A stretch of 32,000 nucleotides of DNA, from positions 1,260,001 through 1,292,000 of the forward strand of contig CBDCNV010000002.1 in NCBI GenBank assembly GCA_965219535.1. Reading direction: 5' to 3'. The notes under the pieces are model-generated. The model ran no database searches. It saw only the letters and a list, made by a program, of their open reading frames with translations, and was not told the origin of the DNA. How positions within the stretch are numbered: position 1 is the stretch's first letter; every line of letters starts with the position of its first letter. This document shows positions 1,674-31,682 of the stretch, in pieces. The position numbers were made by a program, and so were the translations under genes. Source of the DNA: Opitutales bacterium. GTDB lineage: Bacteria > Verrucomicrobiota > Verrucomicrobiia > Opitutales > PNEW01.

Positions 1674-1704
1674 TTTTGACATTTTGACGTTTTGACCTTT
1701 TGAC
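1674..1704 (+). repeat. TTTTGAC octamer array (x4), 15 nt upstream of ATG 1720
   Basis: Identical to 1351-1381 (shifted by 323). Confidence 0.95.
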
Positions 1705-5721: not shown

Positions 5722-5749
5722 GACTTTACCTTTTTTGCCGATGGATAAA

Positions 5750-5774
5750 GTCAAAATGTCAAAAAGTCAAAAGG
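5750..5774 (-). repeat. GTCAAAAG octamer array (x3)
   Basis: gtcaaaatgtcaaaaagtcaaaagg. It reads TTTTGAC in the sense of the minus-strand gene that starts at 5721. Confidence 0.95.
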
Positions 5775-5775
5775 G

Positions 5776-5820
5776 ATATGCGTGTATGCGTCAATGCGTG
5801 TATGTGATGATGCGGTAATG
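5776..5820. repeat. ATGCGNNN octamer array
   Basis: atatgcgtgtatgcgtcaatgcgtgtatgtgatgatgcggtaatg. Confidence 0.9.
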
Positions 5821-5830
5821 TTAAGTATTA

Positions 5831-5863
5831 CTTGCATCGTGTATCATGCATCTTGCATCATCC
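5831..5863. repeat. GCATC heptamer array
   Basis: cttgcatcgtgtatcatgcatcttgcatcatcc, with GCATC/GTATC every 7 nt. Confidence 0.9.
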
Positions 5864-5881
5864 AACGTTTTGACTAATGAT

Positions 5882-5925: not shown

Positions 5926-7038
5926 ATGACATCAAAGAAACGGGAATTCTTAAAACACCTTCTTTGGTCACGAGAGGACGTCGACGCTTGGATCGCAGGC
6001 AGAGCATTTCCTTTTTCAAAATATGACAGTGAACTGGGTTATCTGCACTGCGATCGAGAATTTCAGGATGGCATAGAGGGATCCATTACTACCTACCGTT
6101 ACGATCCTTCGGGCTCACGCCGTATGATCAACTACGCTGATCAGGAATGCCGTATTAATACCTATGGGAATAGTTTCACCCATTGTGATCAGGTGAGCGA
6201 TGGTGAGACATGGCAGGAGATACTGGCCGCGCACCTTTGTGAACCGGTGCGCAATTTTGGGGTCGGTGGATATTCCGTCTATCAAGCATATCTGCGCCTT
6301 CAGCGGGAAGAATCACGATCACCGGCGAAATATATTATATTTAATATTTATGATGATGATCATTATCGCAACCTGCTAAGCTGGCAACGGTTTCGCTTTA
6401 GAGTGACGGCCTATTCCTTTAATTCCACCGTGCCCTATGTAAAAGTGAATCCTGAAAGAGGCGAATTCATTGAGTGTGAAAATCTATGTTCTACTCCGGA
6501 ATCTCTTTATAATCTCTGTGACTTGGATTCGGTCTTTGAAATTTTCAAAGATAACTTTGTCCTTAATAGAAAGGTAGCACAACAAAGCCAAAAAGAGCGC
6601 AAGCGTAAGGGTGAACTCCAATTATCTTCCTATGATGATTTAATGGACACGCTTTATACTGAGTCATCACTTTACGCCAGTATGCAAATCGTAGACAAGG
6701 TGGAAGAATATGCCAGGGATAACAATAAGAAGGTCCTTTATGTTTTATCCTATCGTTATCAGAATATTGAAAATATATTAGCAGGGGGATCACGTTTCGA
6801 TCTTAAATTCGTCGAATATTTGAAAAATAAAAATCTGTCCGTTGTCGATCTGATGAATGCGCATAAAGAAGACTATGCAGAGTTTAAAGGAAGTATTGAA
6901 GCATACATTAAGAAATATTATGATATAGATCTTTTTAACCACTACACCCCGCTTGGAAATTTCTTCTGTGCGTTCGCGATAAAAGATTCGCTTGTTTCAA
7001 TGCTGGAACCGAAACCGCTTTCTTACTCAAATCTATAA
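5926..7038 (+). CDS. SGNH/GDSL-like hydrolase (tentative)
   Basis: The ORF track starts at GTG 5905, inside the 36-bp repeat, so ATG 5926 is preferred. TYGNSFTH (block I-like), FGVGGYS (block II-like) and DLFNHY near the C-terminus are SGNH-like. Confidence 0.5.
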   Translation: MTSKKREFLKHLLWSREDVDAWIAGRAFPFSKYDSELGYLHCDREFQDGIEGSITTYRYDPSGSRRMINYADQECRINTYGNSFTHCDQVSDGETWQEILAAHLCEPVRNFGVGGYSVYQAYLRLQREESRSPAKYIIFNIYDDDHYRNLLSWQRFRFRVTAYSFNSTVPYVKVNPERGEFIECENLCSTPESLYNLCDLDSVFEIFKDNFVLNRKVAQQSQKERKRKGELQLSSYDDLMDTLYTESSLYASMQIVDKVEEYARDNNKKVLYVLSYRYQNIENILAGGSRFDLKFVEYLKNKNLSVVDLMNAHKEDYAEFKGSIEAYIKKYYDIDLFNHYTPLGNFFCAFAIKDSLVSMLEPKPLSYSNL

Positions 7039-7129: not shown

Positions 7130-7197
7130 CGCGTTCCACCATTGCTTATATAATAATTCTTGTTTCTTACGCTATGCATCGTGGATCACTCCGGCTT
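7130..7197. repeat. ~68-bp 3'-flank module, copy 1
   Basis: cgcgttccaccattgcttatataataattcttgtttcttacgctatgcatcgtggatcactccggctt. It is about 80 percent identical to 17788-17855. Both copies lie just 3' of minus-strand genes. Confidence 0.85.
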
Positions 7198-7358
7198 GGA
7201 AGATGTCGTTCCGCGATTGCGGAACTCGGAACTGGTCTTCCGGCTATTCGGTTTGGAAGATGTCATTCCGCGATTGCGGAACTCGGAACTGGTCTTCCGG
7301 CTATTCGGTTTGGAAGATGTCATTCCGCGATTGCGGAACTCGGAATTGGTAATACGGC
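7189..7358. repeat. 57-bp tandem repeat, ~3 copies
   Basis: Units start at 7198, 7255 and 7312 (ggaagatgtcNttccgcgattgcggaactcggaactggtcttccggctattcggttt). Each unit holds a ttccgc-gatt-gcggaa hairpin. The array overlaps the 3' end of CDS 7301-8149. Confidence 0.95.
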
Positions 7359-8149
7359 GCTGGGTCAAATCCGGGATATCTCTTTACCATTCCCTCGATG
7401 AATAGCTTGGTCCACAGCGGGTCACCGGGCGGCGGGAAACCCAACAGTTCTCGCTGGCGCGGTGTAGCCTCAACCATAAAGCGACACATCGCTTCGTTGC
7501 TGGCGCCGCTTTTATAAGTGAAGGTGCGACCCCCGTCCCAGGGCCGGTCTTTGCGGGAATAACAAACATGCATGACCGGGCGATGGCCTCGATGTGAGGT
7601 GAATTCGGAAGCAGCGTGCCGAGTGAATATACTGTAGAGACAGACTGAGCCGCCAGGTACGATCATCGGCACCGCTTCCTCGTCCGGTCGGCCATTAGGC
7701 ACCATACGGATCGGTGCCAAATCCCGCTCCACATCATCGAAGCAATAGAAAAAGTCCAGGTGCATATAGTCGTCGGGCTCGATGATTGGTCCCAGTGTAT
7801 TATTACTGTAGTCGATGTGAAATTTCGTATTGTATTCCTCGCCAGCGTATTTCATTCCCAGATGGCCTTCGCAGAGGCGGATTTCGCGGGTGCCGAAAAC
7901 GCGCTCAGCCGCATCAACCAGATCCGGATGGACGGTGACGTGATTGAGACCGGAGTGGTCCCAGGGGAAGAGTCGATGTTTCGGCGTATTGTTCTGTCGT
8001 TTTTGAGATTCGAATACGTCGAAAGGCGGGGCGAATAAAGTAAAGATTCCTTGGAGCGCAGCTTCCCGCTCATCTTTAGTCAGGAAGTTTTCGATAATAA
8101 GGAACCCCTGCTTTTTGTAAGTGGCGAGTTCCGCGTCAGTGATGTGCAT
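7301..8149 (-). CDS. phytanoyl-CoA dioxygenase (PhyH) family Fe(II)/2-oxoglutarate oxygenase
   Basis: 282 aa. The N-terminus MHITDAELATYKKQGFLIIENFL is typical of PhyH. It has an H-x-D (HIDYS) motif and a distal His. GAGGAG lies upstream of the ATG. The last ~17 codons and the stop are encoded by the 57-bp tandem repeat. Confidence 0.8.
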   Translation of the reverse strand: MHITDAELATYKKQGFLIIENFLTKDEREAALQGIFTLFAPPFDVFESQKRQNNTPKHRLFPWDHSGLNHVTVHPDLVDAAERVFGTREIRLCEGHLGMKYAGEEYNTKFHIDYSNNTLGPIIEPDDYMHLDFFYCFDDVERDLAPIRMVPNGRPDEEAVPMIVPGGSVCLYSIFTRHAASEFTSHRGHRPVMHVCYSRKDRPWDGGRTFTYKSGASNEAMCRFMVEATPRQRELLGFPPPGDPLWTKLFIEGMVKRYPGFDPAPYYQFRVPQSRNDIFQTE

Positions 8150-9458: not shown

Positions 9459-9482
9459 CCTTTCGACCTTCGACCTTTGACT
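9459..9482 (+). repeat. TTCGAC/TTTGAC array
   Basis: cctttcgaccttcgacctttgac, between the start at 9392 and the stop at 9489 of two minus-strand genes. Confidence 0.9.
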
Positions 9483-9488
9483 CACCTC

Positions 9489-9809
9489 TCAGGAAATTGG
9501 AATATTGTTCGTCTCACCGTCGTAACCTTCGACGAGGATGGATGAAATAACCGTCGATGCGCTTTTGCGTATCTCAGCTACCGGTTGATACTCAGGCGCA
9601 GCACCAAACTTTTCCATCTGCTCTTTGGATGGAAAATCGATTACGACCAGTCTGTTGGGTTTCCAATCTCCGACTCGGACGGTGATTTCACCCCCGCGAA
9701 TGTGGTAGTGCCCACCATAACTTTCGACGATCGGGCGCGCTTTCTCAACGTATTCCTGGTACTTGTCCCAGTCGTGAACTTTGATATCACTGATAAGGTA
9801 GACTGACAT
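9489..9809 (-). CDS. DUF1330 domain protein
   Basis: 106 aa. MSVYLISDIKVHDWDKYQEY...VVIDFPSKEQ is characteristic of DUF1330. GAGGAG precedes the ATG. Confidence 0.8.
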   Translation of the reverse strand: MSVYLISDIKVHDWDKYQEYVEKARPIVESYGGHYHIRGGEITVRVGDWKPNRLVVIDFPSKEQMEKFGAAPEYQPVAEIRKSASTVISSILVEGYDGETNNIPIS

Positions 9810-11589: not shown

Positions 11590-11620
11590 TTTTGACCTTT
11601 TGACGTTTTGACATTTTAAC
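11590..11620 (+). repeat. TTTTGAC octamer array (x3-4)
   Basis: tttttgaccttttgacgttttgacattttaac. It is antisense relative to both flanking minus-strand genes. Confidence 0.95.
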
Positions 11621-11625
11621 TACAA

Positions 11626-13596
11626 TCAAACTGACAGATTGAATCTTGATTCCGTCTCTTCATCGATTCCGCCGCGGACAATGGATTCCCAACAGTGTAT
11701 GGGTAATTCACCAAGTATTGATGGAAGTTCAGCTTGCAAGTCTTTGACCAGTGGCAACGCTTCCCTGTCATTCGGATACAGGTTGGCAAGACGGTTCAAT
11801 GCATCCAATGCGAATCCGACACTGATGATATTATCGTCGTCGCGTATTACATCTTTTAAAGCGATTACCAGGGGATCCAACGCTGGGCCAATGATCTCGC
11901 AACCATGGGAACAGAGAATGACGACGGACCAGAGCACATTCTCACGCACCGCAGAACGGACTGGCTTAAATCGCTCGAGACCAAGGTCTCTAGCACCACC
12001 TTCACATACATCGCAGTCATCGGTTGGGCGAGTGAACTTAATGGAGCGTCCTTGTGCATAATCCATGCATTGCCGATTTTCTTCGCGGGGTAGGCTCTGT
12101 ACGAGTGCGTCCAGGCACGAGGGAATGAGTGAAGTTCCGTTCCCGGTGGCAATCGCCCGCCGACCCAGACAACCCAGTGTACCGGCGGCGACGGAGCGGA
12201 CATAAACGGAGGGATCGGATTGCAGACGCTCCGCGACGGCTTGAAAAGTTTCTTCGTTAAGAGGACTCGCATCACCGAGACCATAGACACCCGCCTTGCG
12301 AACCCATTTGACAGGTGAGCTCGTCGCTTTGAGGAAGGTCTTCGTTGCGTCAGGCCCAACGGCAATCAAGCCATAGGTAGCGGCTCGACGCACACTCTCT
12401 CGTTCGTTATACAGTGCCTGGCCCAGTAGTCGTACCGCCAGCTCCGTATCGCCAATGGAGGCGAGTTTGTAGGCTGCTCCAATGCGGGCAGGTTCAGCTT
12501 CTTCGTTTTTGGAGTGCATCTGTTCGAAAAGACGGTCAGCTTCTTTTTCGCGTTCTTCAGATGAAATAGACAAAACTTCCGGTCGCGGTGGCGGTGTCCT
12601 ACTCGTTTTCATCCAGTGATTATGGTATCGCCAGACCACAGTGATGTCGTCGCTGGCCTCAGATAAATCGATGCTGGTAAGCGGATCCACACCGGGGCTG
12701 TGCCAATCGACTTCGGTGGGGGACGCATTACTGGAAGAGACGGAATCGGTGGTTCGATATAACCAGAAACGCCACATGAAGCGAGGGTTGTCCTGCCAGG
12801 TTCGCCAGTCATCGCGGCGGTGGTTACCTCGGTGAAATGTGTTGTGGGAATAGAGAATAACGCTGCCGGCTCGAAGGGGTGCGGCTTCGAAGGGCTGCAC
12901 AAGCGGCCAACCGGTGTTCTTTACGGCGTCTCGCATCCGAATATCGTGGGTTGTTCGACGGTGGATGATGTCTTCAATCTCGTATACGGAATCAGGACCG
13001 CTAACGTTTACGCTCTCCATGCCTAAGATCTGGTAGTTGAAATCTAAATGGTCGGCACCTGCAAAATTGTCATGATTTTCTTCATGATTAGAGGCCCAGT
13101 AGTGTGAGTAGGGGATGGTCGCGGTCGGTCCCATGTCTTCGCGAACCGGTTGCGGATAGTAAAGCATCTCGATTTGCACGGCCTGGTGGTGGCGCTGTTT
13201 CCTGCCGTTGTAGGGGCTGTTGTCATCTTTGTGCCAATGCTGATCTTTCTTCCCGCTGACGAAGGATGCATTGTGCGTGAACGGTACGATCGCCCAGTTT
13301 TCACCGATGAGCTGATTGCACGCGCTGATGAGCCCGGGTGCTTTCAGAACTTCAAGCACGTCCGGAACGCTTGCCGGGGAAACACGCGAAACCGTGGGGT
13401 GGGTTGCTATGGCAGAAACCTGTTCGTCGTATGCTTTTTTTTCTTTCGCATATACCCGATTGTGAACTTCGGTGGGGATACCGAGGCTTTCCGGAGCCAG
13501 CACGACAATCCCTCGGCTTACAAAGTCCTGAACCAGTCGATCCATCGTACTGTAGGGTATGGAGAAAGTGGAAATTTCTTTGTAGTTTGTGCTCAA
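11626..13596 (-). CDS. PhyH-like 2-oxoglutarate oxygenase domain fused to C-terminal HEAT (PBS-lyase type) repeats
   Basis: 656 aa. The N-terminal half has HWHKDD (H-x-D) and NTFHRGNH. The C-terminal ~300 aa has repeated VRRAATYGL / VRKAGVYGLG / VRSVAAGTLG HEAT-like units. The start is TTG 13596 (AGGGG upstream) or ATG 13545. Confidence 0.7.
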   Translation of the reverse strand: MSTNYKEISTFSIPYSTMDRLVQDFVSRGIVVLAPESLGIPTEVHNRVYAKEKKAYDEQVSAIATHPTVSRVSPASVPDVLEVLKAPGLISACNQLIGENWAIVPFTHNASFVSGKKDQHWHKDDNSPYNGRKQRHHQAVQIEMLYYPQPVREDMGPTATIPYSHYWASNHEENHDNFAGADHLDFNYQILGMESVNVSGPDSVYEIEDIIHRRTTHDIRMRDAVKNTGWPLVQPFEAAPLRAGSVILYSHNTFHRGNHRRDDWRTWQDNPRFMWRFWLYRTTDSVSSSNASPTEVDWHSPGVDPLTSIDLSEASDDITVVWRYHNHWMKTSRTPPPRPEVLSISSEEREKEADRLFEQMHSKNEEAEPARIGAAYKLASIGDTELAVRLLGQALYNERESVRRAATYGLIAVGPDATKTFLKATSSPVKWVRKAGVYGLGDASPLNEETFQAVAERLQSDPSVYVRSVAAGTLGCLGRRAIATGNGTSLIPSCLDALVQSLPREENRQCMDYAQGRSIKFTRPTDDCDVCEGGARDLGLERFKPVRSAVRENVLWSVVILCSHGCEIIGPALDPLVIALKDVIRDDDNIISVGFALDALNRLANLYPNDREALPLVKDLQAELPSILGELPIHCWESIVRGGIDEETESRFNLSV

Positions 13597-13669: not shown

Positions 13670-14836
13670 CTAAGCAACAGATTTTGGAACAATATCTCCC
13701 ATCGCGGCGGCGAGGGGGTCGGTCGAAACTTTCTCACGGGGCGGTGGTAGAGGCGTGTCGTAGGCATAGTCGGGGTCTTCAAGTTGTTTCTTCCAGATTT
13801 CTCTTATCTCTTTCCATGACCCCACGAGGGATCGGGTTTTTGGCATATCTTCGGCGACGACTTTGTGTAGTTTCTTGAGATTATAACAGGGCACCGCTGC
13901 GTACATGTGGTGTTCTATATGCCAGTTCATACGCCAGTAGAGGAAACTGGAAAGGGGGTCGAGGGTGATCGTCCGCGTGCACTTTCTGAAATCATTAACA
14001 TTGCTTTGCAGGCCGATGTGCATCGGTGTTCCGACAAAATAATGGAGCGCATTACCGAAGAAAATATGTCCGGAAATCAGGACGGCCAGTATCGGCTGAC
14101 CCATTGCTATGCAGGTGCCTATTACCAACATGTGAAACGCCAAAACAAACCGCGCCCAATTGACGGCTTTCTTACGCGCTTCCGGTTGCTCTGCGAAAAG
14201 TTCAGCTCCCCAGTGAGTCATGGGATTGTCGAACTTGTTTGATGCGATCTCGATGCATTTACTGAACGTGGGTATAATCCCCCTCGACATAAAGCCGCCC
14301 GTAATATTGAGGGTAAACAACTGGAGGAGGTAAAGGAAGCGTAGCGTGGGTTGGTAGGGCAGCACGACCTCCCGATCCGCTTCTATATGTAGCGTGAATC
14401 GATGATGGTAGCTGTGGCTCATTTGGTAGAGATGGAAGTGCTTCCATGAGAGCAGGCAGAATACGCGGAGAAAGAATTCATTGAGCCACTTAGTCTTAAA
14501 TGAGTTGCCATGGCACAGCTCATGTTCAGCCGCGCCAAAAAAGACACCCACGGTCCCGTGTACAAACAGAGCGACAAAAAAGCCGATCCACAACAGCTGG
14601 GTGAAGAGAACGTAAGTAGCTGTGCCGGTGATCGCCCATAGTCCCAGGTGACCCAGGGCTTGAAAAAGGCCGTGAAAATCACTGCGCTTTGAGAGGGCGC
14701 GGAGCTGTTTGGGTTCGATGTAACAGCGGTACCATTTAGGTTTTAAGGTCCGACTGATTTGGGACAGCGGTACTTTATTGATCTTGTTAATATTGCTTTC
14801 TTTGATTTGCGTTAGATTTTCTGGGATCTGTTGCAT
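13670..14836 (-). CDS. membrane fatty-acid desaturase family protein
   Basis: 388 aa. It has the three histidine boxes HELCHG, HSYHH and HIEHH with hydrophobic spans. A strong AAGGAGG lies 5 nt before the ATG. Confidence 0.85.
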   Translation of the reverse strand: MQQIPENLTQIKESNINKINKVPLSQISRTLKPKWYRCYIEPKQLRALSKRSDFHGLFQALGHLGLWAITGTATYVLFTQLLWIGFFVALFVHGTVGVFFGAAEHELCHGNSFKTKWLNEFFLRVFCLLSWKHFHLYQMSHSYHHRFTLHIEADREVVLPYQPTLRFLYLLQLFTLNITGGFMSRGIIPTFSKCIEIASNKFDNPMTHWGAELFAEQPEARKKAVNWARFVLAFHMLVIGTCIAMGQPILAVLISGHIFFGNALHYFVGTPMHIGLQSNVNDFRKCTRTITLDPLSSFLYWRMNWHIEHHMYAAVPCYNLKKLHKVVAEDMPKTRSLVGSWKEIREIWKKQLEDPDYAYDTPLPPPREKVSTDPLAAAMGDIVPKSVA

Positions 14837-16601: not shown

Positions 16602-16829
16602 GGCAACACGCTAATATGTGTATACGCGATAATGCGTGTATGCGGTCATGCGGAGCATCTACTGGAGGGACAAGTGGTGCCTGTCGGCCATAGCCCAACG
16701 GGCGTCGGATGATCGTGTCTGTGAATATTCAACAAGAGTATTAAGTGTTAGGTGGAGCGGGCTGTCCCTAGCACGCTTCTTAATTAATCAATAATTATTA
16801 CAAAAGCGGTAGGGACACCGCGTTCCACC
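16602..16829 (+). repeat. composite direct repeat, left copy (ATGCG array + GGAGGGAC hairpin + GGTGGA hairpin)
   Basis: 16602-16727 matches 17571-17696 with 4 mismatches in 126 bp. 16728-16829 is a more diverged homologue of 17697-17797. It is followed by the terminus-like tcgcgatgacaaagg (16831-16845). Confidence 0.95.
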
Positions 16830-16989
16830 TTCGCGATGACAAAGGAAAAAGATTTTTGACCTTCTACCATTCTCATCGTACACACGCATGTTTGAGTATA
16901 CACATATTACTATCCTTTCAGCAGAACGACCTAATTCAGCCCCTGGCTAAGCGGTTGACTAGCTGCTGCGTGTCCTCCCCAATGACTGG

Positions 16990-17570: not shown

Positions 17571-17797
17571 GGCAACTCGCTAATATGCGTATACGCGATA
17601 ATGCGTGTATGCGGTCATGCGGAGCATCTAATGGAGGGACAAGTGGTGCCTGTCGGCCATAGCCCAACGGGCGTCGGATGATCGCGTCTGTGAATACGCA
17701 GTAGCGGATTTTTATTTTAGGTGGGGTGGGCTGTCTCAGCACGCTTAATAATTATTCAAATATTACTACAAACGCGCTAGAGACAGCACGTTCCACC
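17571..17797 (+). repeat. composite direct repeat, right copy
   Basis: See the left copy; the offset is 969 bp. Weaker similarity extends upstream to agcaagtct (17543 versus 16562), overlapping the 5' end of ORF 16990-17547. Confidence 0.95.
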
Positions 17798-19852: not shown

Positions 19853-20307
19853 TATTTCTTCCCCCTCCTATGCCCGCGGCCGGTTCTCACATAACCGATC
19901 TGTTTGAGTCCCTTACCGTAGATGCGAAAAGCCTTCCCAAATCCGTATACCAGGGTGCCTTCACTCGGTTTCAAAAGAAATAGATCAAAGTCTACTAAGT
20001 TTTTCAGCATCCCGACCTTCTTTTTGAATTTTTTTTCCAAAATCGCAAATGCAGTGTTCCATTTCACACTCTCCCGTTTAATGACACTAACCTTAACCTC
20101 AAGGGTCAGTCGTTTGCGGGCAAAGAGCGTCGCCGCGGTCGATTCATCTTCGATGATCATTAGACTCGCTTTACCCGTAGCCTTGAGGTTGGCGGAGTGG
20201 CGAGCCAGCGCGCTCACATAAATATAGAAATTACATTTCTCATCGATGGCCGCCGGGGCATAACTGGCGTTGGGCTCACCGTATTCATCCACGGTGCTCA
20301 AAATCAC
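19852..20307 (-). CDS. pyridoxamine-5'-phosphate-oxidase-like / HugZ-like FMN-binding split-barrel protein
   Basis: The 151-aa ORF starts at GTG 20307. The frame stays open 28 codons further upstream (to 20391) and encodes a plausible N-terminal helix with no ATG, GTG or TTG. The stop codon abuts the GAACC array. Confidence 0.6.
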   Translation of the reverse strand: MILSTVDEYGEPNASYAPAAIDEKCNFYIYVSALARHSANLKATGKASLMIIEDESTAATLFARKRLTLEVKVSVIKRESVKWNTAFAILEKKFKKKVGMLKNLVDFDLFLLKPSEGTLVYGFGKAFRIYGKGLKQIGYVRTGRGHRRGKK

Positions 20308-20382
20308 TGTTTTGAAATGATTTAGCAGACTATCTCGCTCTCTCGCTGCCTCCTTAAATTCTTCTTCTGTTTTGATCGAATA

Positions 20383-20415
20383 GTCAAAAGGTCAAAAAGT
20401 CAAAAGGTCAAAAGG
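20383..20415 (-). repeat. GTCAAAAG octamer array (x4)
   Basis: gtcaaaaggtcaaaaagtcaaaaggtcaaaagg. It reads TTTTGAC in the sense of the PNPOx-like gene and overlaps the open upstream frame of that gene. Confidence 0.95.
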
Positions 20416-20416
20416 A

Positions 20417-20463
20417 AATGCGTAAATGCGATTATGCGAATAAGCGAAGATGCGGTAATGCGT
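20417..20463. repeat. ATGCGNNN octamer array
   Basis: aatgcgtaaatgcgattatgcgaataagcgaagatgcggtaatgcgt. Confidence 0.9.
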
Positions 20464-20546: not shown

Positions 20547-20741
20547 CTTGTCATTGCGAAGGAGGCGAAGCCGACTGCGGCTACCGAGCGCCGCGACATC
20601 TTCCATTTCCAGGCGACTGACGATACGCTGTCCTATGTTCTCCTGGAATGGAAGATGTCGGACTACGTCCTCGGTAGCCACGACTGACAAGCAACCTTCC
20701 CCCGTCGCACGAGGCTATGGAGGACAGGCGCGATGACAAAG
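20547..20741. repeat. GTCATTGCG / CGCGATGACAAAG-bounded palindromic element (~195 bp)
   Basis: The termini cttgtcattgcg and cgcgatgacaaag are inverted. The inner arms ctaccgagcgccgcgacatcttccatttccagg (20581-20612) and cctggaatggaagatgtcggactacgtcctcggtag (20642-20677) are also inverted. Confidence 0.9.
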
Positions 20742-20846: not shown

Positions 20847-22115
20847 ATGATAAATAATAACGAAACAAAAGCTGATGTCGTGATTGTCGGTGCCGGTGTA
20901 ATTGGAATTTGCACGGCTTATTTCCTTTCTCAGTCGGATCGAGATATTATCGTCGTTGATAAAGATGAGGTCTGCTCGGGCTGTTCCTACGGAAACGCTG
21001 GCTTGATCGTTCCCAGCCACTGCGTCCCGCTGGCTGAGCCGGGAGTAATAAAAAAAGGAATGAAATGGATGCTGAATCCCGAGAGCCCTTTTTATATTAA
21101 ACTGCGTCTCGATAGGGACTTGCTTGACTGGCTATGGCGATTCCGAAGCGCTTGCAATGAAACTCATGTAAAGCGTTCGATGCCGGTAATCAGTGATCTC
21201 ACATTCGAGAGCTTGCAACTTTACAACGAGATAATCGGAAACGATGGGATAGACTTCGGTTTTGAGCAACGGGGTTCGCTCTACGTGTGCAATACTGAAA
21301 AAGCAATGGATGAGCTTGAGGAGAATATGGGTCAATTGCAGTCGGTGGGGATCGAATCAGAGCTCCTCGATAAAGTTCAGACCCAGGAGAAAGTGGGTGA
21401 TCTAAAAGTTAATACGGTCGGCAGCGTATACTACCCACAAGATGCACATCTCCAGCCGGCCCGGTTCGTCAGGGAGTTGGCGAAAAAGGTTATCGAATCC
21501 GGGGTGAAGATCCAATCTAAGACTGAAGTCCTGGGATTCGAAAGAACAGGCAATCGGCTTACGAAAGTCTGGACCACGCGAGGTGATATCGAGGCGAATG
21601 AGGTGGTCATTGCGAGTGGAGCCTGGTCACCTGCAATCGCGCGGCAGCTTGGGCTGCGCCTGAAAATTCAAGCGGGGAAGGGCTACAGCATTACCCTCGA
21701 GCGTCCTGAAGTTTCAGCGGACATCCCATTAATGCTTGTCGAGATGAAGGTTGGCGTGACCCCGATGGGAGATACTATTCGTTTCGCGGGAACACTCGAG
21801 ATGGCGGGACTGAACTTTGCAATCAACGAGCGAAGGGTTCAGGGTATCCTCAAGTCTGTGCCGCAATATTTGCCCGATCTCGATCCCAATCTCTGTCGGT
21901 TGATCGAGGTCTGGCGCGGGCTGCGCCCCTGCACTCCGGACGGATTACCGTATTTAGGACGCCCCAAAAATTTTGAGAATCTGACCGTAGCTGCCGGGCA
22001 CGCGATGATCGGAGTATCTCTCGGACCCGTAACCGGTAGAATCGCATCTAATATCGTGCTCCGTGAAGACCCCGGATTCGATTTAACCCCATTGAGATTA
22101 AGCCGATTTAACTGA
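20847..22115 (+). CDS. FAD-dependent oxidoreductase, D-amino-acid dehydrogenase (DadA)-like
   Basis: 422 aa. The N-terminal DVVIVGAGVIGICTAYFL dinucleotide fold and the overall DAO-family layout are present. Confidence 0.85.
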   Translation: MINNNETKADVVIVGAGVIGICTAYFLSQSDRDIIVVDKDEVCSGCSYGNAGLIVPSHCVPLAEPGVIKKGMKWMLNPESPFYIKLRLDRDLLDWLWRFRSACNETHVKRSMPVISDLTFESLQLYNEIIGNDGIDFGFEQRGSLYVCNTEKAMDELEENMGQLQSVGIESELLDKVQTQEKVGDLKVNTVGSVYYPQDAHLQPARFVRELAKKVIESGVKIQSKTEVLGFERTGNRLTKVWTTRGDIEANEVVIASGAWSPAIARQLGLRLKIQAGKGYSITLERPEVSADIPLMLVEMKVGVTPMGDTIRFAGTLEMAGLNFAINERRVQGILKSVPQYLPDLDPNLCRLIEVWRGLRPCTPDGLPYLGRPKNFENLTVAAGHAMIGVSLGPVTGRIASNIVLREDPGFDLTPLRLSRFN

Positions 22116-22123: not shown

Positions 22124-22155
22124 GTCAAAAGGTCAAAAAGTCAAAAGGTCAAAAG
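22124..22155 (-). repeat. GTCAAAAG octamer array (x4)
   Basis: gtcaaaaggtcaaaaagtcaaaaggtcaaaag, immediately 3' of the plus-strand DadA-like gene. Confidence 0.95.
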
Positions 22156-22192
22156 GGGAGGAGCGCTGACGCGATAATACGAAGTATCTTCT

Positions 22193-22386: not shown

Positions 22387-23346
22387 TCATTTCCCATACA
22401 TCGCTCCTGCGATTGCGAGTTCAGCTGAATAAAGAGAAGTATCACTCGCAATATATAAGGTTGTGAAATTGGGGCCGCCAAAACAGCAGTTTGCCGTGCT
22501 CTGTTCGGGCAGCAGTATTTTTCCGATCAATTCGCCTCGTGGTGTATAACAGTGAACCCCATCTTCGGCGCTTGTCCAAATGTTGCCATTAACATCACAG
22601 CGGAAACCATCGGATGCACCCGGCCTCACCAATAAAAATTCACGCTCGTTGCTGAGCGTTTTTCCGTCGTCGGCGACATCAAATGCAAGGACGTTTCTCG
22701 GTTCTCCCGTGTCGGCCACGTAAAGGATGGATTCATCGGGTGAAAAGGCGAGGCCGTTAGGCCTGTCCATCGTGTCAATGGCGACTGACAGAGAGGAAGT
22801 TTCGGGGTCATAACGGAATACATAATTGGCTCCATAATCCGAATCGCGTTTAGTCCCCTCACGATTTGAGAGAATACCGTAAGGCGGATCAGTAAACCAT
22901 ATCGAACCATCAGATTTAACCACGAGATCATTAGGCGAATTAAATCTTTTTCCTTCAAAGTTATCGACTAATGTCGTCACGCTTCCGTCGTGTTCTGTTC
23001 TCGTGATGCGATTCGTCTGGTGCTCTGCAGTTACCATACGCCCTTCATGATCGGTCGTATTGCCGTTGGAAAAGTTTGATCGCTCCCGATGGACAGCGGT
23101 TTCGCCCGTAGCCGGATCATAACTGATCATGCGATTATTCGGGACGTCAGACATGACGACCAGTTTATGACGGGGAAGATAGACGGCACCCTCTGCCCAC
23201 TCAGCACCGCGCCAATGATGAACAATTTTTGGGTTTTCCGGTAAGAGTTTGTCAAAGCGAGGATCGATCGTCTCGAAACCCTCTCGTAGCTCGTCTCCGG
23301 ATTTATCGTTTCTATGCGCGGGAAATATTTTTGATTCAGCTGGCAT
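22387..23346 (-). CDS. SMP-30/gluconolactonase/LRE-like beta-propeller hydrolase
   Basis: About 319 aa. AEGAVYLPRHKLVVMSDVPNNRMISYDPATGE and repeated propeller blades are present. The track starts at TTG 23352; ATG 23346 is preferred. The ATG lies 9 nt from a TTTTGAC array with no Shine-Dalgarno. Confidence 0.8.
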   Translation of the reverse strand: MPAESKIFPAHRNDKSGDELREGFETIDPRFDKLLPENPKIVHHWRGAEWAEGAVYLPRHKLVVMSDVPNNRMISYDPATGETAVHRERSNFSNGNTTDHEGRMVTAEHQTNRITRTEHDGSVTTLVDNFEGKRFNSPNDLVVKSDGSIWFTDPPYGILSNREGTKRDSDYGANYVFRYDPETSSLSVAIDTMDRPNGLAFSPDESILYVADTGEPRNVLAFDVADDGKTLSNEREFLLVRPGASDGFRCDVNGNIWTSAEDGVHCYTPRGELIGKILLPEQSTANCCFGGPNFTTLYIASDTSLYSAELAIAGAMYGK

Positions 23347-23355
23347 GGGCAACTA

Positions 23356-23388
23356 GTCAAAAAGTCAAAAGGTCAAAAAGTCAAAAGG
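23356..23388 (-). repeat. GTCAAAAG octamer array (x4)
   Basis: gtcaaaaagtcaaaaggtcaaaaagtcaaaagg. It reads TTTTGAC in the sense of the gluconolactonase-like gene and lies 9 nt from its ATG. Confidence 0.95.
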
Positions 23389-23651: not shown

Positions 23652-23763
23652 ATTGTCATTGCGAAGGAGGCGATGCCGACTGCGGCAATCCAGGGGGGCT
23701 GATATTACACTTCCGACATTCCCCTGGATCGCCACGGCTGACAGCAGCCTCGCGATGACAAAT
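23652..23763. repeat. GTCATTGCG / CGCGATGACAAA-bounded palindromic element (~112 bp)
   Basis: attgtcattgcgaagg is inverted relative to cctcgcgatgacaaat. The inner ggcaatccagggg is inverted relative to cccctggatcgcc. Confidence 0.9.
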
Positions 23764-23834: not shown

Positions 23835-24629
23835 ATGGAAGATTATAAGGACAAAGTGGTCATCGTCACAGGTGCCTGTGGTGGCATAGGAGAAGTGATC
23901 GCTGAAAAGATGGCCGGAGCCAGCGCCGCGCTGGGACTCTGTGATATCAATCGCGATAAGCTTGTTTCAGTCGCGGATAAATTTCAGAGCGCGGGTGCGC
24001 GTGTTCACCACTCAGTCACCGATGTTTCCAAGGAAGATGAGGTTCATGAATTTTGCGACGCGGTCGTTTATACACTCGGGAAAATCGATTGTCTGATAAA
24101 TACGGTCGGCATTGTAGATTGCCAGGGTGACATTGAAGAACTGTCTCTTTCGCTATTGGATAAAACCCTGGGTATCAATCTCACTTCAGCTTTCCTCATG
24201 GCAAAGTATTCACTTCCACATATCAAGCAGCAGGGTGGGGGTGCGATCCTCAACATATCATCGGCTTCAGGTCTCGCCAACCAGGCAAAGGCGATGGTTT
24301 ATTCGGTTTCGAAAGCCGCCCTCCTATCGCTCACACGAAGCGAAGCCATCGATCTTGCTCCCTATAAAATTCGCGCCAACTCCATCTCCCCGGGCTCGGT
24401 GTATACGCCATTGTTGGATGATGCACTTCGTGATCAGTCCAAAATCTACAACCGCACGGAGGAGGAGCAGTTGAAGGTATGGGAATCGCAATATCCAACA
24501 CAGCGTTTTTCGACGCCACAGGAAATCGCCGAGCTCGCCCTATTTTTGTGCAGCGATCGAGCGTCTAATATTACCGGCTCCAATTTTGTTATCGATGGTG
24601 GACTAACATCCCTGCTCCCCGAAAGGTGA
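23835..24629 (+). CDS. short-chain dehydrogenase/reductase (SDR)
   Basis: 264 aa with TGACGGIGE, NISS and YSVSKAAL (YxxxK). GAGGAG lies 8 nt upstream of the ATG. Confidence 0.9.
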   Translation: MEDYKDKVVIVTGACGGIGEVIAEKMAGASAALGLCDINRDKLVSVADKFQSAGARVHHSVTDVSKEDEVHEFCDAVVYTLGKIDCLINTVGIVDCQGDIEELSLSLLDKTLGINLTSAFLMAKYSLPHIKQQGGGAILNISSASGLANQAKAMVYSVSKAALLSLTRSEAIDLAPYKIRANSISPGSVYTPLLDDALRDQSKIYNRTEEEQLKVWESQYPTQRFSTPQEIAELALFLCSDRASNITGSNFVIDGGLTSLLPER

Positions 24630-24913: not shown

Positions 24914-24948
24914 CTTCGACTTTCGACTTTCGACCTTTGACCTTCGAC
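24914..24948 (+). repeat. TTCGAC/TTTGAC array (x5)
   Basis: cttcgactttcgactttcgacctttgaccttcgac, 13 nt upstream of the RidA ATG. Confidence 0.95.
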
Positions 24949-25349: not shown

Positions 25350-25425
25350 GGTGGAACGCGCTGTCCCCTAGCGCGTTTCAAAATGTCATAAGGGAAGAAG
25401 CGTGCTAGGGACAGCCCGCTCCACC
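25350..25425 (-). repeat. GGTGGA...TCCACC long hairpin, inverted orientation relative to 16751-16829
   Basis: The right arm cgtgctagggacagcccgctccacc is the exact reverse complement of 16751-16775. The left arm is ggtggaacgcgctgtcccctagcgcg. The element lies between convergent genes and is followed by a reverse TTAGG array (25431-25460). Confidence 0.95.
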
Positions 25426-25482: not shown

Positions 25483-27702
25483 TTAAAACGTTACTTCTTC
25501 AAAGTTAAGGGTGATCGTTTCTCCAACCTCGTTTTCGAAGGTAGCAGCAACGCTCTGTGTCGGTTGGGGCGTGTTGTCGGATTTGAAGTTGTTCTGCGAA
25601 ATCAAGGTCTCAATTCCGGATGTCGTCGAATCACTCTCCGCGACGACGACTGCGGCCCCGTTCGTCTGCAACAAATCTCCTCCCGTGATCCTCACCCCGG
25701 GGTTGCCGGCTGGCACAGTGAAAGAGCCTTCTCCAAACAAAAGGTACGGAACTGCATCCCCACTGGCATCGATGTCGCCTAAGGTTAAGCGAACCGCGAT
25801 CGGTACCCCGCGCGCGTCGACACCGGTCTTGCCGGTGCTTCCACTGAAGACGGTGTTCGATAACTGCACTCCTCCCATTCCTGTGGAATTAACGACTTCT
25901 ACGAGGGCCACGTCCGCTTGTGCGTCATAGACCTGTCCCTCGGGGAAGAGGGCCTGGTTAAACGCGTTGATCCTGCCCACGGTGAAGATACTGAAGAAGG
26001 TATTGGCATCCGCGCCGTCGATGACGACGCTCGGCTTGCCCGTCACGTACTCAACGGCCTGGTTGTAGCGTGGTGGGATGGCCGGGGGCAGGAAGGTAGC
26101 TGGGTCCAGGGTTACGGTAAAGGTACCATTACCTGAAAACTCTACCTGCACAATATCCTCGTTTTCGTCCATGAAGGAGACGCGTGTGATCTGTCCCGGT
26201 TTGGCCTGGAGTTGGACGGACTCTCCGGTAAGTAAAATCTGGTCGAAGACGTTACCGTTGGCATGCTGAATGTTTTCCCCGGCGATATCGCCCGAGCCGT
26301 CAAGCACGAGAGGGATAGCCGCGGCTGCGATCGTAATAACCGCAGTATCGCTGTCCGCGGTTCCTCCAGCGTTAGTAATCTGTACCCAAAAGCTTGTGCT
26401 CGCGGTGAGCGCGCCCGTGTCTAACGTGCCGCTGGTAGCGCCGGCGACGGGACTGGCGGTGTCGCCGCTGTTGCCGGTAAACCACTGGTAAGTGAGATCG
26501 TCACCACTGGCGGTAACGGACAAGCTGGCTGAAGCGCCCGAAGCGACCTCCTGGCTCGCGGGCTGGGTAGTGATGGACGGGGCATCCGCGGGTGGGGGTC
26601 CTTCGGAGCCCGTGCCCGGTGCTCCGATGGGCGTAAACCCAAAATCGTCAACTGCAGTACGACTGAAAAGAGCGTTTATATCCGGGTCATCTTTCATCAC
26701 AAGTCTGCTAATGCCGCCCGGGGCTCCCAATTCATCCGCATTAATCGTTATGAAACTAGGTTTGAATTCAGGGGTAATATCCCCCTCTAAATTCCTTAAG
26801 GTAACAAGCAAGTTATCGTTCGTATCATAGACTTCGATTGAGCCGTCAGGATCGGAGGTACTTGATGTCACCACTGCGGCTCCAAAAAGATCAATTTCAT
26901 AAGCTGGCGTTTCAAAAGTGATGGTCGCTTCTTCTCCATTAAATATTGCATAAGAATGAGGGAACGAGCGTACTTGTTCGAAGGCACCTGAGACAAATAC
27001 GATAGACCCCCCTTCAAAAGTAGCCGTATTAGGCGACGTCCCAATGACTAAGGGCTCAGATAATCCATCCCCTACGCCAAATTCACTAAAAGTGCTGTAA
27101 ACCGTGTTGTTCGAGGGAAATTCCGTCAGGGTGAACCCCAAGTCGTCGAGGACGAGTTTTCCGGTTACATTAAAAATCTTCACTTCTATAATGCCGCTGA
27201 TGAAATTAAAATCATCTTCATCCTGGAAAAATCCGCTGTCGGCGACAAAGCTGTATAAGGGGGGATTTGCGCCGGGACTGATATTTGAAGGCAGCCCATC
27301 CACAACACCATCGTCACCTATTACCGTTATCGCCATACGACCTGGGCCCGCTAAATTTGATTCATTGATTATTCCCCTGAACTCCATCCTGCCAGCGCCC
27401 GTTGTTTCTCCAGCATAAAATTCGATAAATTGAATACCTCTTTCCGAGATGATCTTTCCCTCCTGTCCGGGCCCGAGGGTTATCGCTTTTGTTCCTGAAT
27501 GTAAAAGCGCGGGATCCTCTAATGTCTCAATCGTGAAGCCGACCAGCTTAATCCGATTGGGCTCTTCACCGATAAAAAATTCACCTTCACCGCTGATGTC
27601 TTCAAAATCTGTGAATACCTCCAGGTCTTGAGGCAGGGCGATAAGAAGAATCGGGTTTAAAATTGAGAGTAAAACGAGCGTAAGTGCATTTTTAAAAAAC
27701 AT
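25483..27702 (-). CDS. large secreted/surface protein with Ig-like domain
   Basis: 739 aa. It has an N-terminal signal (MFFKNALTLVLLSILNPILLIALP). A central ITTQPASQEV...LTYQWF...TADSDTAVITI segment is Ig (I-set)-like. The composition is Gly/Thr/Ser-rich. The internal plus-strand ORFs are shadows. Confidence 0.7.
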   Translation of the reverse strand: MFFKNALTLVLLSILNPILLIALPQDLEVFTDFEDISGEGEFFIGEEPNRIKLVGFTIETLEDPALLHSGTKAITLGPGQEGKIISERGIQFIEFYAGETTGAGRMEFRGIINESNLAGPGRMAITVIGDDGVVDGLPSNISPGANPPLYSFVADSGFFQDEDDFNFISGIIEVKIFNVTGKLVLDDLGFTLTEFPSNNTVYSTFSEFGVGDGLSEPLVIGTSPNTATFEGGSIVFVSGAFEQVRSFPHSYAIFNGEEATITFETPAYEIDLFGAAVVTSSTSDPDGSIEVYDTNDNLLVTLRNLEGDITPEFKPSFITINADELGAPGGISRLVMKDDPDINALFSRTAVDDFGFTPIGAPGTGSEGPPPADAPSITTQPASQEVASGASASLSVTASGDDLTYQWFTGNSGDTASPVAGATSGTLDTGALTASTSFWVQITNAGGTADSDTAVITIAAAAIPLVLDGSGDIAGENIQHANGNVFDQILLTGESVQLQAKPGQITRVSFMDENEDIVQVEFSGNGTFTVTLDPATFLPPAIPPRYNQAVEYVTGKPSVVIDGADANTFFSIFTVGRINAFNQALFPEGQVYDAQADVALVEVVNSTGMGGVQLSNTVFSGSTGKTGVDARGVPIAVRLTLGDIDASGDAVPYLLFGEGSFTVPAGNPGVRITGGDLLQTNGAAVVVAESDSTTSGIETLISQNNFKSDNTPQPTQSVAATFENEVGETITLNFEEVTF

Positions 27703-27714
27703 GGCTATCTTTGA

Positions 27715-27750
27715 TATGTATTGATGGGGGGAGATGTATTGATGGGGGGA
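27715..27750. repeat. 18-bp tandem repeat x2 just upstream of the secreted-protein gene
   Basis: (t/g)atgtattgatgggggga occurs twice. On the coding strand it reads tccccccatcaatacat x2 and ends 12 nt before ATG 27702. Confidence 0.9.
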
Positions 27751-31645: not shown

Positions 31646-31682
31646 AGTAGAATGTCAAAAGACATTTCTATGACATTGTGCA

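Follow-up and report, generated by a model that had tools for sequence, protein, structure and literature searches.

Short tandem arrays of TTTTGACN in the intergenic DNA of this Opitutales bacterium obey a polarity rule, pointing toward the nearer end of a neighboring gene whether that end is a start or a stop codon. Most probably they are modules of fixed polarity at the ends of mosaic intergenic repeats, and some may have been co-opted as leaders of genes that lack a Shine-Dalgarno (SD) sequence; we have moderate confidence in this explanation. Besides the polarity rule, we directly observed inverted pairs of arrays, homologous composite elements dispersed among loci, presence and absence of arrays at orthologous sites, and slippage in the number of units.

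The window, by which we refer to the whole 32-kb stretch that was analyzed, contains 32 exact copies of TTTTGAC against 5.9 ± 2.6 expected (maximum of 13 in 100 shuffles). With Tandem Repeats Finder and direct reading, 8-bp tandem arrays of three to four units each were found, and all of the arrays listed in an initial annotation of this DNA were present, as were the single sense copies that it had placed before the genes starting at 5926 and 31595. The features are as follows.

1351-1381: duplicate of the 1674-1704 array, within a 323-bp tandem duplication (1156-1801)
1674-1704, plus strand: four-unit array, 15 nt before ATG 1720 of the Peptidase_M15 gene
5747-5875, between divergent genes: complete mosaic element consisting of GTCAAAAN x3 (5750-5772), ATGCGNNN x5 (about 5777-5815), TGCATCN x4 (5831-5861), and one outward TTTTGAC (5868-5874)
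5750-5772, minus strand: three-unit GTCAAAAN array, sense, 28 nt from ATG 5721
5868-5874: single outward TTTTGAC, end of the 5747-5875 composite
9459-9482, plus strand: three 7-bp TTCGACY units aimed at the DUF1330 3' end, 6 nt from the stop codon at 9489
11590-11620, plus strand: array of three units and one degenerate unit (exact units 11590-11612) at the HEAT/PhyH 3' end, stop codon at 11626
20383-20413, minus strand: four-unit array, then six ATGCGNNN units (20418-20460), directed toward the PNPOx-like gene
22124-22154 (feature 22124-22172), minus strand: four-unit array 8 nt past the DAO stop codon (TGA 22113-22115), aimed back into DAO
23356-23386, minus strand: four-unit TTTTGACN array with TTTTGAC reading toward the SGL/gluconolactonase gene, then TAGTTGCCC, then ATG 23346
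24914-24948, plus strand: five 7-bp TTCGACY units ending 13 nt before ATG 24962 of RidA
31654-31660, minus strand: single TTTTGAC, in sense orientation, before the Kelch/SSF gene (ATG 31595), with CGCAT-type units in between

The arrays had initially been described as octameric throughout; this applies to most of them, but those at 9459-9482 and 24914-24948 have a period of 7 bp. Distances of 9 to 28 nt between sense arrays and start codons were confirmed at ATG 1720 (15 nt), 5721 (28 nt), 23346 (9 nt, based on the gene calls of identical public contigs), and 24962 (13 nt), but the PNPOx array is situated 75 nt from the annotated GTG at 20307. Three arrays that had been regarded as exceptions (9459, 11590, and 22124) turned out not to be exceptional, as each aims into the 3' end of the adjacent gene at a distance of 6 to 13 nt. 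The array at 11590-11620 occupies a spacer of 49 nt and lies 13 nt from the HEAT/PhyH stop codon, and that at 22124-22154 is followed by the shared inner motif GGGAGGAGCGCTGACGCG.

The array at 1351-1381 exists only because of the 323-bp tandem duplication, whose two copies are 100% identical and comprise the array, the sequence upstream of it, and 82 nt from the beginning of the Peptidase_M15 gene. The duplicated segment is single-copy in another assembly of the same genome (L120), and the duplication is either a strain polymorphism or an assembly artifact. Other 7- to 8-bp tandem repeats (ATGCGNNN, TGCATCN, CTAACAC-like, GAACC-like, and AATCSGA) crowd the intergenic DNA of the window. Repeats with longer units are also present: a 57-bp tandem repeat (2.8 copies, 97% identical) at 7192-7350 overlaps the PhyH gene (7301-8149) at its 3' end, and two exact copies of an 18-bp unit, ATGTATTGATGGGGGGAG, at 27716-27750 lie directly upstream of the Ig_7 start at 27702. 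Just past the window (L001 18226-20451) there is a paralog of this Ig_7 gene with 80% identity.

A search for three exact units in one genome per species matched at least 114 loci, where well under one chance match was expected by a rough estimate (4^21 21-mers versus approximately 1.2e12 positions, both strands). According to a tally of record titles, PVC bacteria are the majority among the matches listed, with two Opitutales MAGs, many Phycisphaerae, and Planctomycetaceae, and Bacteroidales form a second group. The single Poribacteria match among those listed (L020) has no sequence in common with the window. In Planctomycetota, related arrays with TTTCGACG units are found. An Ig-domain gene of the window displays 85% nucleotide identity to a piece of the Opitutales MAG OY829953.1, and when the window repeats were compared by blastn with the fetched loci, 71 of the 80 matches were in this MAG or in the second Opitutales MAG. 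Flanking motifs and other repeat elements are also common to the window genome and the Opitutales MAG, and the two genomes thus use the same intergenic "grammar." Among 2.9 million viral contigs, only 5 matches to the four-unit array were found, which makes a phage origin unlikely. An Rfam scan of the whole window gave no family at the gathering score, and we found no description of TTTTGAC or octamer repeats in Verrucomicrobia, Planctomycetes, or PVC bacteria in the literature searched.

The orientation of the arrays was examined with TTYGAC units spaced by 6 to 9 bp in the window genome, including 18 kb of additional sequence, and in the Opitutales loci among the matches listed, using the gene calls supplied for the window genome and our own longest-ORF calls elsewhere. 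In 47 of these 49 arrays, the motif read in the 5'-to-3' direction aims at the nearer coding sequence (P = 4e-12), the median distance to coding sequence being 9 nt ahead of the motif and 138 nt behind it; an array is usually within about 0 to 25 nt of the neighboring coding sequence. Of the 47 arrays, 27 face a start codon and 20, in mirror orientation, a stop codon, so that the arrays do not simply stand in for the ribosome-binding site. An earlier count restricted to Opitutales among the matches listed had given the same picture, with 28 of 31 arrays directed toward the closer ORF (binomial P = 5e-6), median gaps of 8 nt and, behind, 140 nt, and 15 arrays aimed at a 3' end as opposed to 13 at a 5' end. 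Taken by itself, the window genome has 9 arrays that face starts and 3 that face stops. Practically all arrays (49/50) are intergenic, and the genes abutted at their 3' ends encode Pfam domains in 10 of 10 cases. Other repeat families display the same polarity, namely TAAMAC (9/9), CGCAT (5/5), and GAACC (5/6).

Among the matches listed, 14 of 15 arrays in Phycisphaerae are also directed toward the closer ORF (binomial P = 1e-3), a result that is the least reliable because it depends on our own longest-ORF calls in high-GC DNA. The Bacteroidales arrays among the matches listed exhibit no polarity (11/20 toward the nearer ORF) and may be a separate matter. Some of the abutment at 5' ends is forced, since three TTTTGACN units close all three reading frames and the ORFs were called by length. 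As a counterweight, ATGs at 7 to 15 nt recur and are conserved in orthologs, and the abutment at 3' ends is not forced by the ORF caller.

The composite nature of the elements is most readily seen at 5747-5875, where the plus strand is predicted to form a long hairpin (z = -3.7). An nhmmer profile built from this element and two copies recovered full-length copies at unrelated loci (L043 and L097) of another Opitutales MAG, with E values of 1e-31 to 1e-36, along with many partial copies consisting of an array plus ATGCG. Full composite copies occupy unrelated loci in three genomes, between genes that are arranged divergently, convergently, or in tandem; the copies are only 71 to 80% identical, and thus no recent movement was caught. 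When neighboring arrays lie within 400 bp of each other, they point outward (5 pairs) and never inward (0 pairs). The outward pairs enclose whole spacers of 118 to 245 bp, for which long hairpins are predicted (z = -7 to -8), and there are many arrays with no partner at the far end of the spacer. Homology extends past the array through a junction motif, ACGCATTTCC or CAGCGCTCYTCC, and within the arrays the variable base N alternates between C and T to generate a 16-bp super-unit (13/28 versus 16% expected; P = 1e-4). The dinucleotide TA follows 21 of 40 array ends, and the flanks of paired ends do not match.

MITEs are small, non-coding elements with terminal inverted repeats (TIRs), and in foldback elements the TIRs consist of tandem short repeats. 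The mosaic elements resemble them in their size (about 120 to 250 bp), absence of coding capacity, high copy number, and occurrence of filled and empty orthologous sites, and differ in the lack of a consistent target-site duplication, in that no autonomous partner was found, and in an interior that varies greatly. More specifically, terminal inverted repeats, a length of 118 to 245 bp, a non-coding sequence, and many dispersed copies were all observed, but the elements are not proven MITEs because no consistent target-site duplication was present in the flanks of eight paired or full-length copies. We found no transposase flanked by outward arrays in 8-kb pieces of the relevant genomes and no mobilizing gene in the loci examined. 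The BOX elements of Streptococcus pneumoniae and the BIME/REP elements of enterobacteria are likewise non-coding, dispersed, and modular, with a variable number of modules and inverted, hairpin-forming ends, and they reside in intergenic regions beside gene ends and affect the expression of neighboring genes. The elements described here share with them the modular make-up, inverted ends, and intergenic location. In contrast to BOX and BIME/REP, every module here is a 7- to 8-bp tandem array; there is no sequence similarity, and no RAYT-type gene was found in the loci examined.

Several other repeats were noted in the same intergenic regions. Inverted CTAACAC-like heptamer arrays (GTGTTAG... 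loop ...CCTAAAACCTAACAC) are located between convergent genes at 2600-2675 of the window and at 9550-9620 of locus L121; a hairpin is predicted for them (z = -3.4), which makes them candidate bidirectional terminators. Another hairpin repeat, approximately 76 nt long (GGTGGAACGCGCTGTCCC...GGGACAGCCCGCTCCACC), at 25350-25425, with similar sequences at 16745-16844 and 17718-17797, is found in several copies in L120 and in the Opitutales MAG (L049, L114, and L077), is intergenic and dispersed in both genomes, and resembles a REP-like element. A separate MITE-like family of 109 to 192 bp, with TIRs TTGTCATTGCG(A) and (T)CGCGATGACAA, is present in the window (20548-20739 and 23653-23761), in L117 (2506-2612), and in L120 and L121.

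Taken as end modules, the TTTTGACN arrays and their TTCGACY relatives would be the outermost parts of mosaic elements dispersed in the Opitutales lineage. Each element would be a string of short tandem repeats (TTTTGACN, ATGCGNNN, TGCATCN, and others) bounded on one side or on both by TTTTGAC arrays that are inverted and point outward. The elements would take up spacers that were formerly very short, which would place the array near a coding sequence at starts and stops alike. We infer that they spread as blocks and that later insertions landed inside them, leaving arrays stuck to the genes. At gene starts, a four-unit array would have come to serve, from about -9 to -41, as the proximal leader of genes without an SD, where it would be tolerated and possibly co-opted.

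Orthologous loci on two JGI metagenome contigs (L117 and L118; 85 to 90% coding identity) illustrate how arrays are gained, lost, and altered in length. The array at the 3' end of DAO has 4 units in the window, 3 in L118, and 0 in L117, in which the empty spacer is 37 nt. L118 has the same start context, TCCCCTATG, at RidA as the window but no TTCGACY array, and its spacer there measures about 17 nt. The RidA array contains one additional unit in the near-identical assemblies L001 and L002, the sole indel in 18 kb. In phase-variable simple-sequence contingency loci, the number of units varies within a population and switches expression; here, the 7-mer array varies by one unit between assemblies, and the 8-mer arrays, which are short tracts of 3 to 4 units, are all identical across the three assemblies. 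The arrays thus touch genes because elements come and go in very short spacers (17 and 37 nt when empty). The array before the SGL gene has four units in all three lineages (window, L118, and L117), with a few point changes and the ATG 8 to 9 nt away. It has kept its four units over about 12% coding divergence, and the sequences of the window and L118 beyond it are unrelated. As a separate observation, the C terminus of SGL (VWEMM*; window 22387-22410) is replaced in L118 (7380-7430) by ICSVINDR*, which derives from an inserted repeat module, indicating that the repeats are able to overwrite gene ends.

At the PNPOx-like gene, L118 has 8 nt between the array and the ATG. In L117, a MITE (TTGTCATTGCG...CGCGATGACAA) is situated between the ATG and a decayed array; it lies exactly at the PNPOx start, whose ATG is provided by the CAT in the end repeat of the MITE. 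The window copy no longer has the ancestral ATG, the position at which L118 and L117 do show one, and the loss apparently took place where the array joins the gene. The conserved N-terminal 28 codons remain at 20308-20382 without a canonical start codon, and there is none between the TGA of the array and GTG 20307. The AAGGAGG at 20345-20351 is ancestral PNPOx coding sequence (K-E-A) and not an SD.

The main rival to the end-module explanation is a primary role in translation, in which a (UUUUGACN)4 leader would be bound by the ribosome (via S1) or by a cold-shock-type protein and would drive or regulate SD-independent initiation, the 3' copies being by-products or acting on antisense RNA. From our analysis of the sequences, we consider this possible but rather unlikely. 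It corresponds to the initial proposal that the arrays replace the SD, and a part of that proposal has held up. Sense arrays repeatedly end 7 to 15 nt before conserved start codons with no SD in between, a pattern seen in the window, in a further 18 kb of its genome, and in an Opitutales MAG. The spacers contain no GGAG, GAGG, or AGGA, although the GH67-like gene does have a weak AAAGGT at about -12, a partial departure from the claim that array genes lack an SD. The SD-like elements reported for array-free genes were confirmed at 13670-14836 (AAAGGAGGT) and, as GAGGAG, at 23835, 9489-9809, and 7301-8149. The 5' arrays are also more regular than the 3' arrays, with four units in 13/15 versus 8/17 (Fisher P = 0.028) and TA after the array in 12/15 versus 6/17 (P = 0.016). 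The SGL and PNPOx arrays are conserved beside the ATG, the array parted from its ATG by the MITE in L117 has decayed, and the window genome has its surplus of arrays at starts. The greater regularity at 5' ends and the retention of the SGL array while the sequence beyond it turned over hint at selection that a passive model does not predict. An SD-independent leader is thus a possible secondary use of the 5' arrays, as judged from these patterns.

A primary role in translation is difficult to reconcile with the 20 of 47 arrays, in the window genome and the Opitutales loci among the matches listed, that face the stop codons of genuine genes. Since such arrays lie beside the stops of Pfam-bearing genes, neither a leader nor a promoter function can explain them. 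At RidA, the L118 ortholog shares the start context of the window copy, also without an SD, and carries no array. Among 36 genes of the window genome, an SD is present in 11, an array in 7 to 8, and neither in 18, so that lack of an SD is common in this genome and half of the genes have neither feature. The position of the 5' arrays suits a U-rich, unstructured standby site for S1. When start regions were folded, the mean unpaired probability between -15 and +10 did not differ among genes with an array (0.52), an SD (0.59), or neither (0.57), and unrelated repeat families show the same polarity. We know of no convincing complementarity between UUUUGAC and the 16S 3' tail (E. coli sequence). 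In the Opitutales MAG, the array-to-start spacers of two tandem PhyH paralogs (L049 6419-6440 and 7544-7570) are perfect palindromes that include the ATG (TATCCATCGATGGATA; TATCCATCGCCGATGGATA), and a related motif, TATCCATCG, follows the arrays before several genes of the window genome.

The remaining explanations have less in their favor. TTGAC is the core of the sigma-70 -35 hexamer, and the spacers of divergent gene pairs are wholly filled by mosaic repeats, so that promoters must lie somewhere within them; phased -35-like stacks, or sites for a DNA-binding regulator, could then mark promoters with very short leaders. This possibility, raised in the initial annotation, is very improbable. 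A promoter and terminator scan around the arrays identified 6 sigma-70-like sites versus 7.9 expected, only one of which uses an array unit, and no -10 element is present at a workable distance. With gaps of 7 to 9 nt between array and ATG, a -10 element placed 16 to 18 bp past TTGAC falls in or beyond the start codon, and the transcript would begin inside the gene; moreover, arrays are found inside the probable operons hyp72-RidA and SSF-GH172 and at 3' ends aimed into genes. The arrays might instead be barriers at gene borders, at which stray translation or transcripts from the spacer would be stopped or cut, as three or more TTTTGACN units give TGA in all frames and the units resemble RNase E sites. 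With a period of 8 bp, TGA falls in frames 0, 2, and 1 and the reverse strand is open in all frames, and the polarity is symmetric about the spacer. However, a filter supplying stops at 3' ends would favor the opposite orientation, and the TTCGACY units and the TTTCGACG units of Planctomycetota obey the same polarity without a stop codon. The latter finding rules out a three-frame TGA barrier as the general cause, and barriers in any form appear quite unlikely from the sequences. Neutral microsatellites, arising by replication slippage in place with no common origin, would account for the one-unit polymorphism in the 7-mer array and for the unit numbers that differ among orthologs, but not for the same unit, junction motifs, and C/T alternation at dozens of loci in several phyla, the strict polarity, or composite elements that are homologous between loci. 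They are already disfavored, and we regard them as extremely unlikely.

A broader and distinctly doubtful possibility is that PVC bacteria (Opitutales, Phycisphaerae, and Planctomycetaceae) share a cis-regulatory code. A (UUUUGACN)4 leader 7 to 9 nt before the AUG would recruit ribosomes or an RNA-binding regulator in place of an SD, mosaic elements would carry and spread this leader and rewire the adjoining genes, and the mirror-image ends at 3' positions would form long hairpins that terminate or stabilize transcripts.

The nearest precedent is the TAACTGA heptamers of Beggiatoaceae, of which there are 170 sets of 2 to 6 copies, 147 facing starts and 12 facing stops, with the SD being rare; some Cyanobacteria and Bacteroidetes have them as well, and S1, Csp, or CsrA was put forward, without a test, as a binding protein (MacGregor 2015, PMC4679880). 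The preponderance of sets facing starts in that system would favor a primary role in translation. Both systems consist of direct tandem repeats of short units that are nearly all intergenic, are aimed at ORF boundaries near starts where the SD is rare, carry stops in all forward frames, are patchy across phyla, and in some cases face stops (PMC4679880). The tandem arrays described here are likewise intergenic, with a 7- or 8-nt unit repeated 3 to 4 times (up to 7 elsewhere), but because the repeated sequence is a different one, either TTTTGACN with 8 bp or TTCGACY with 7 bp, they are an analogue and not the same repeat. They also differ in their hosts, which are PVC bacteria, in the proportion facing stops (approximately 40% in the window genome and the Opitutales loci among the matches listed, versus 7%), in the gap to the ATG (7 to 15 nt versus mostly 1 nt), and in forming the ends of larger mosaic elements with inverted partners (PMC4679880). 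In Nostoc PCC 7120, STRR heptamers, (TTTTGAA)3-4, are located near start codons, and deletion of an STRR altered the regulation of a recO reporter, the role being speculative (bioRxiv 10.1101/2022.06.06.494920). The arrays are similar to the cyanobacterial STRRs in comprising 3 to 4 contiguous short units near the starts or promoters of many genes and in the presence of several families per genome, and differ in phylum and unit; polarity toward stop codons and a composite architecture were not reported there (10.1101/2022.06.06.494920).

Short tandem repeats that abut start codons have been unexplained for decades in cyanobacterial and Beggiatoaceae genomes, and PVC bacteria are a third, unrelated group with a different unit. 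Our results add two new constraints on any explanation, namely the polarity toward the nearest gene boundary, stops included, and the position of the arrays at the ends of larger elements made entirely of tandem repeats. Should a function be demonstrated for the start-proximal arrays, they would represent a portable signal for SD-independent initiation. Otherwise, repeat colonization would fill all dispensable intergenic DNA up to the codons themselves, with a bearing on gene-start prediction and promoter inference in lineages that are represented only by MAGs.
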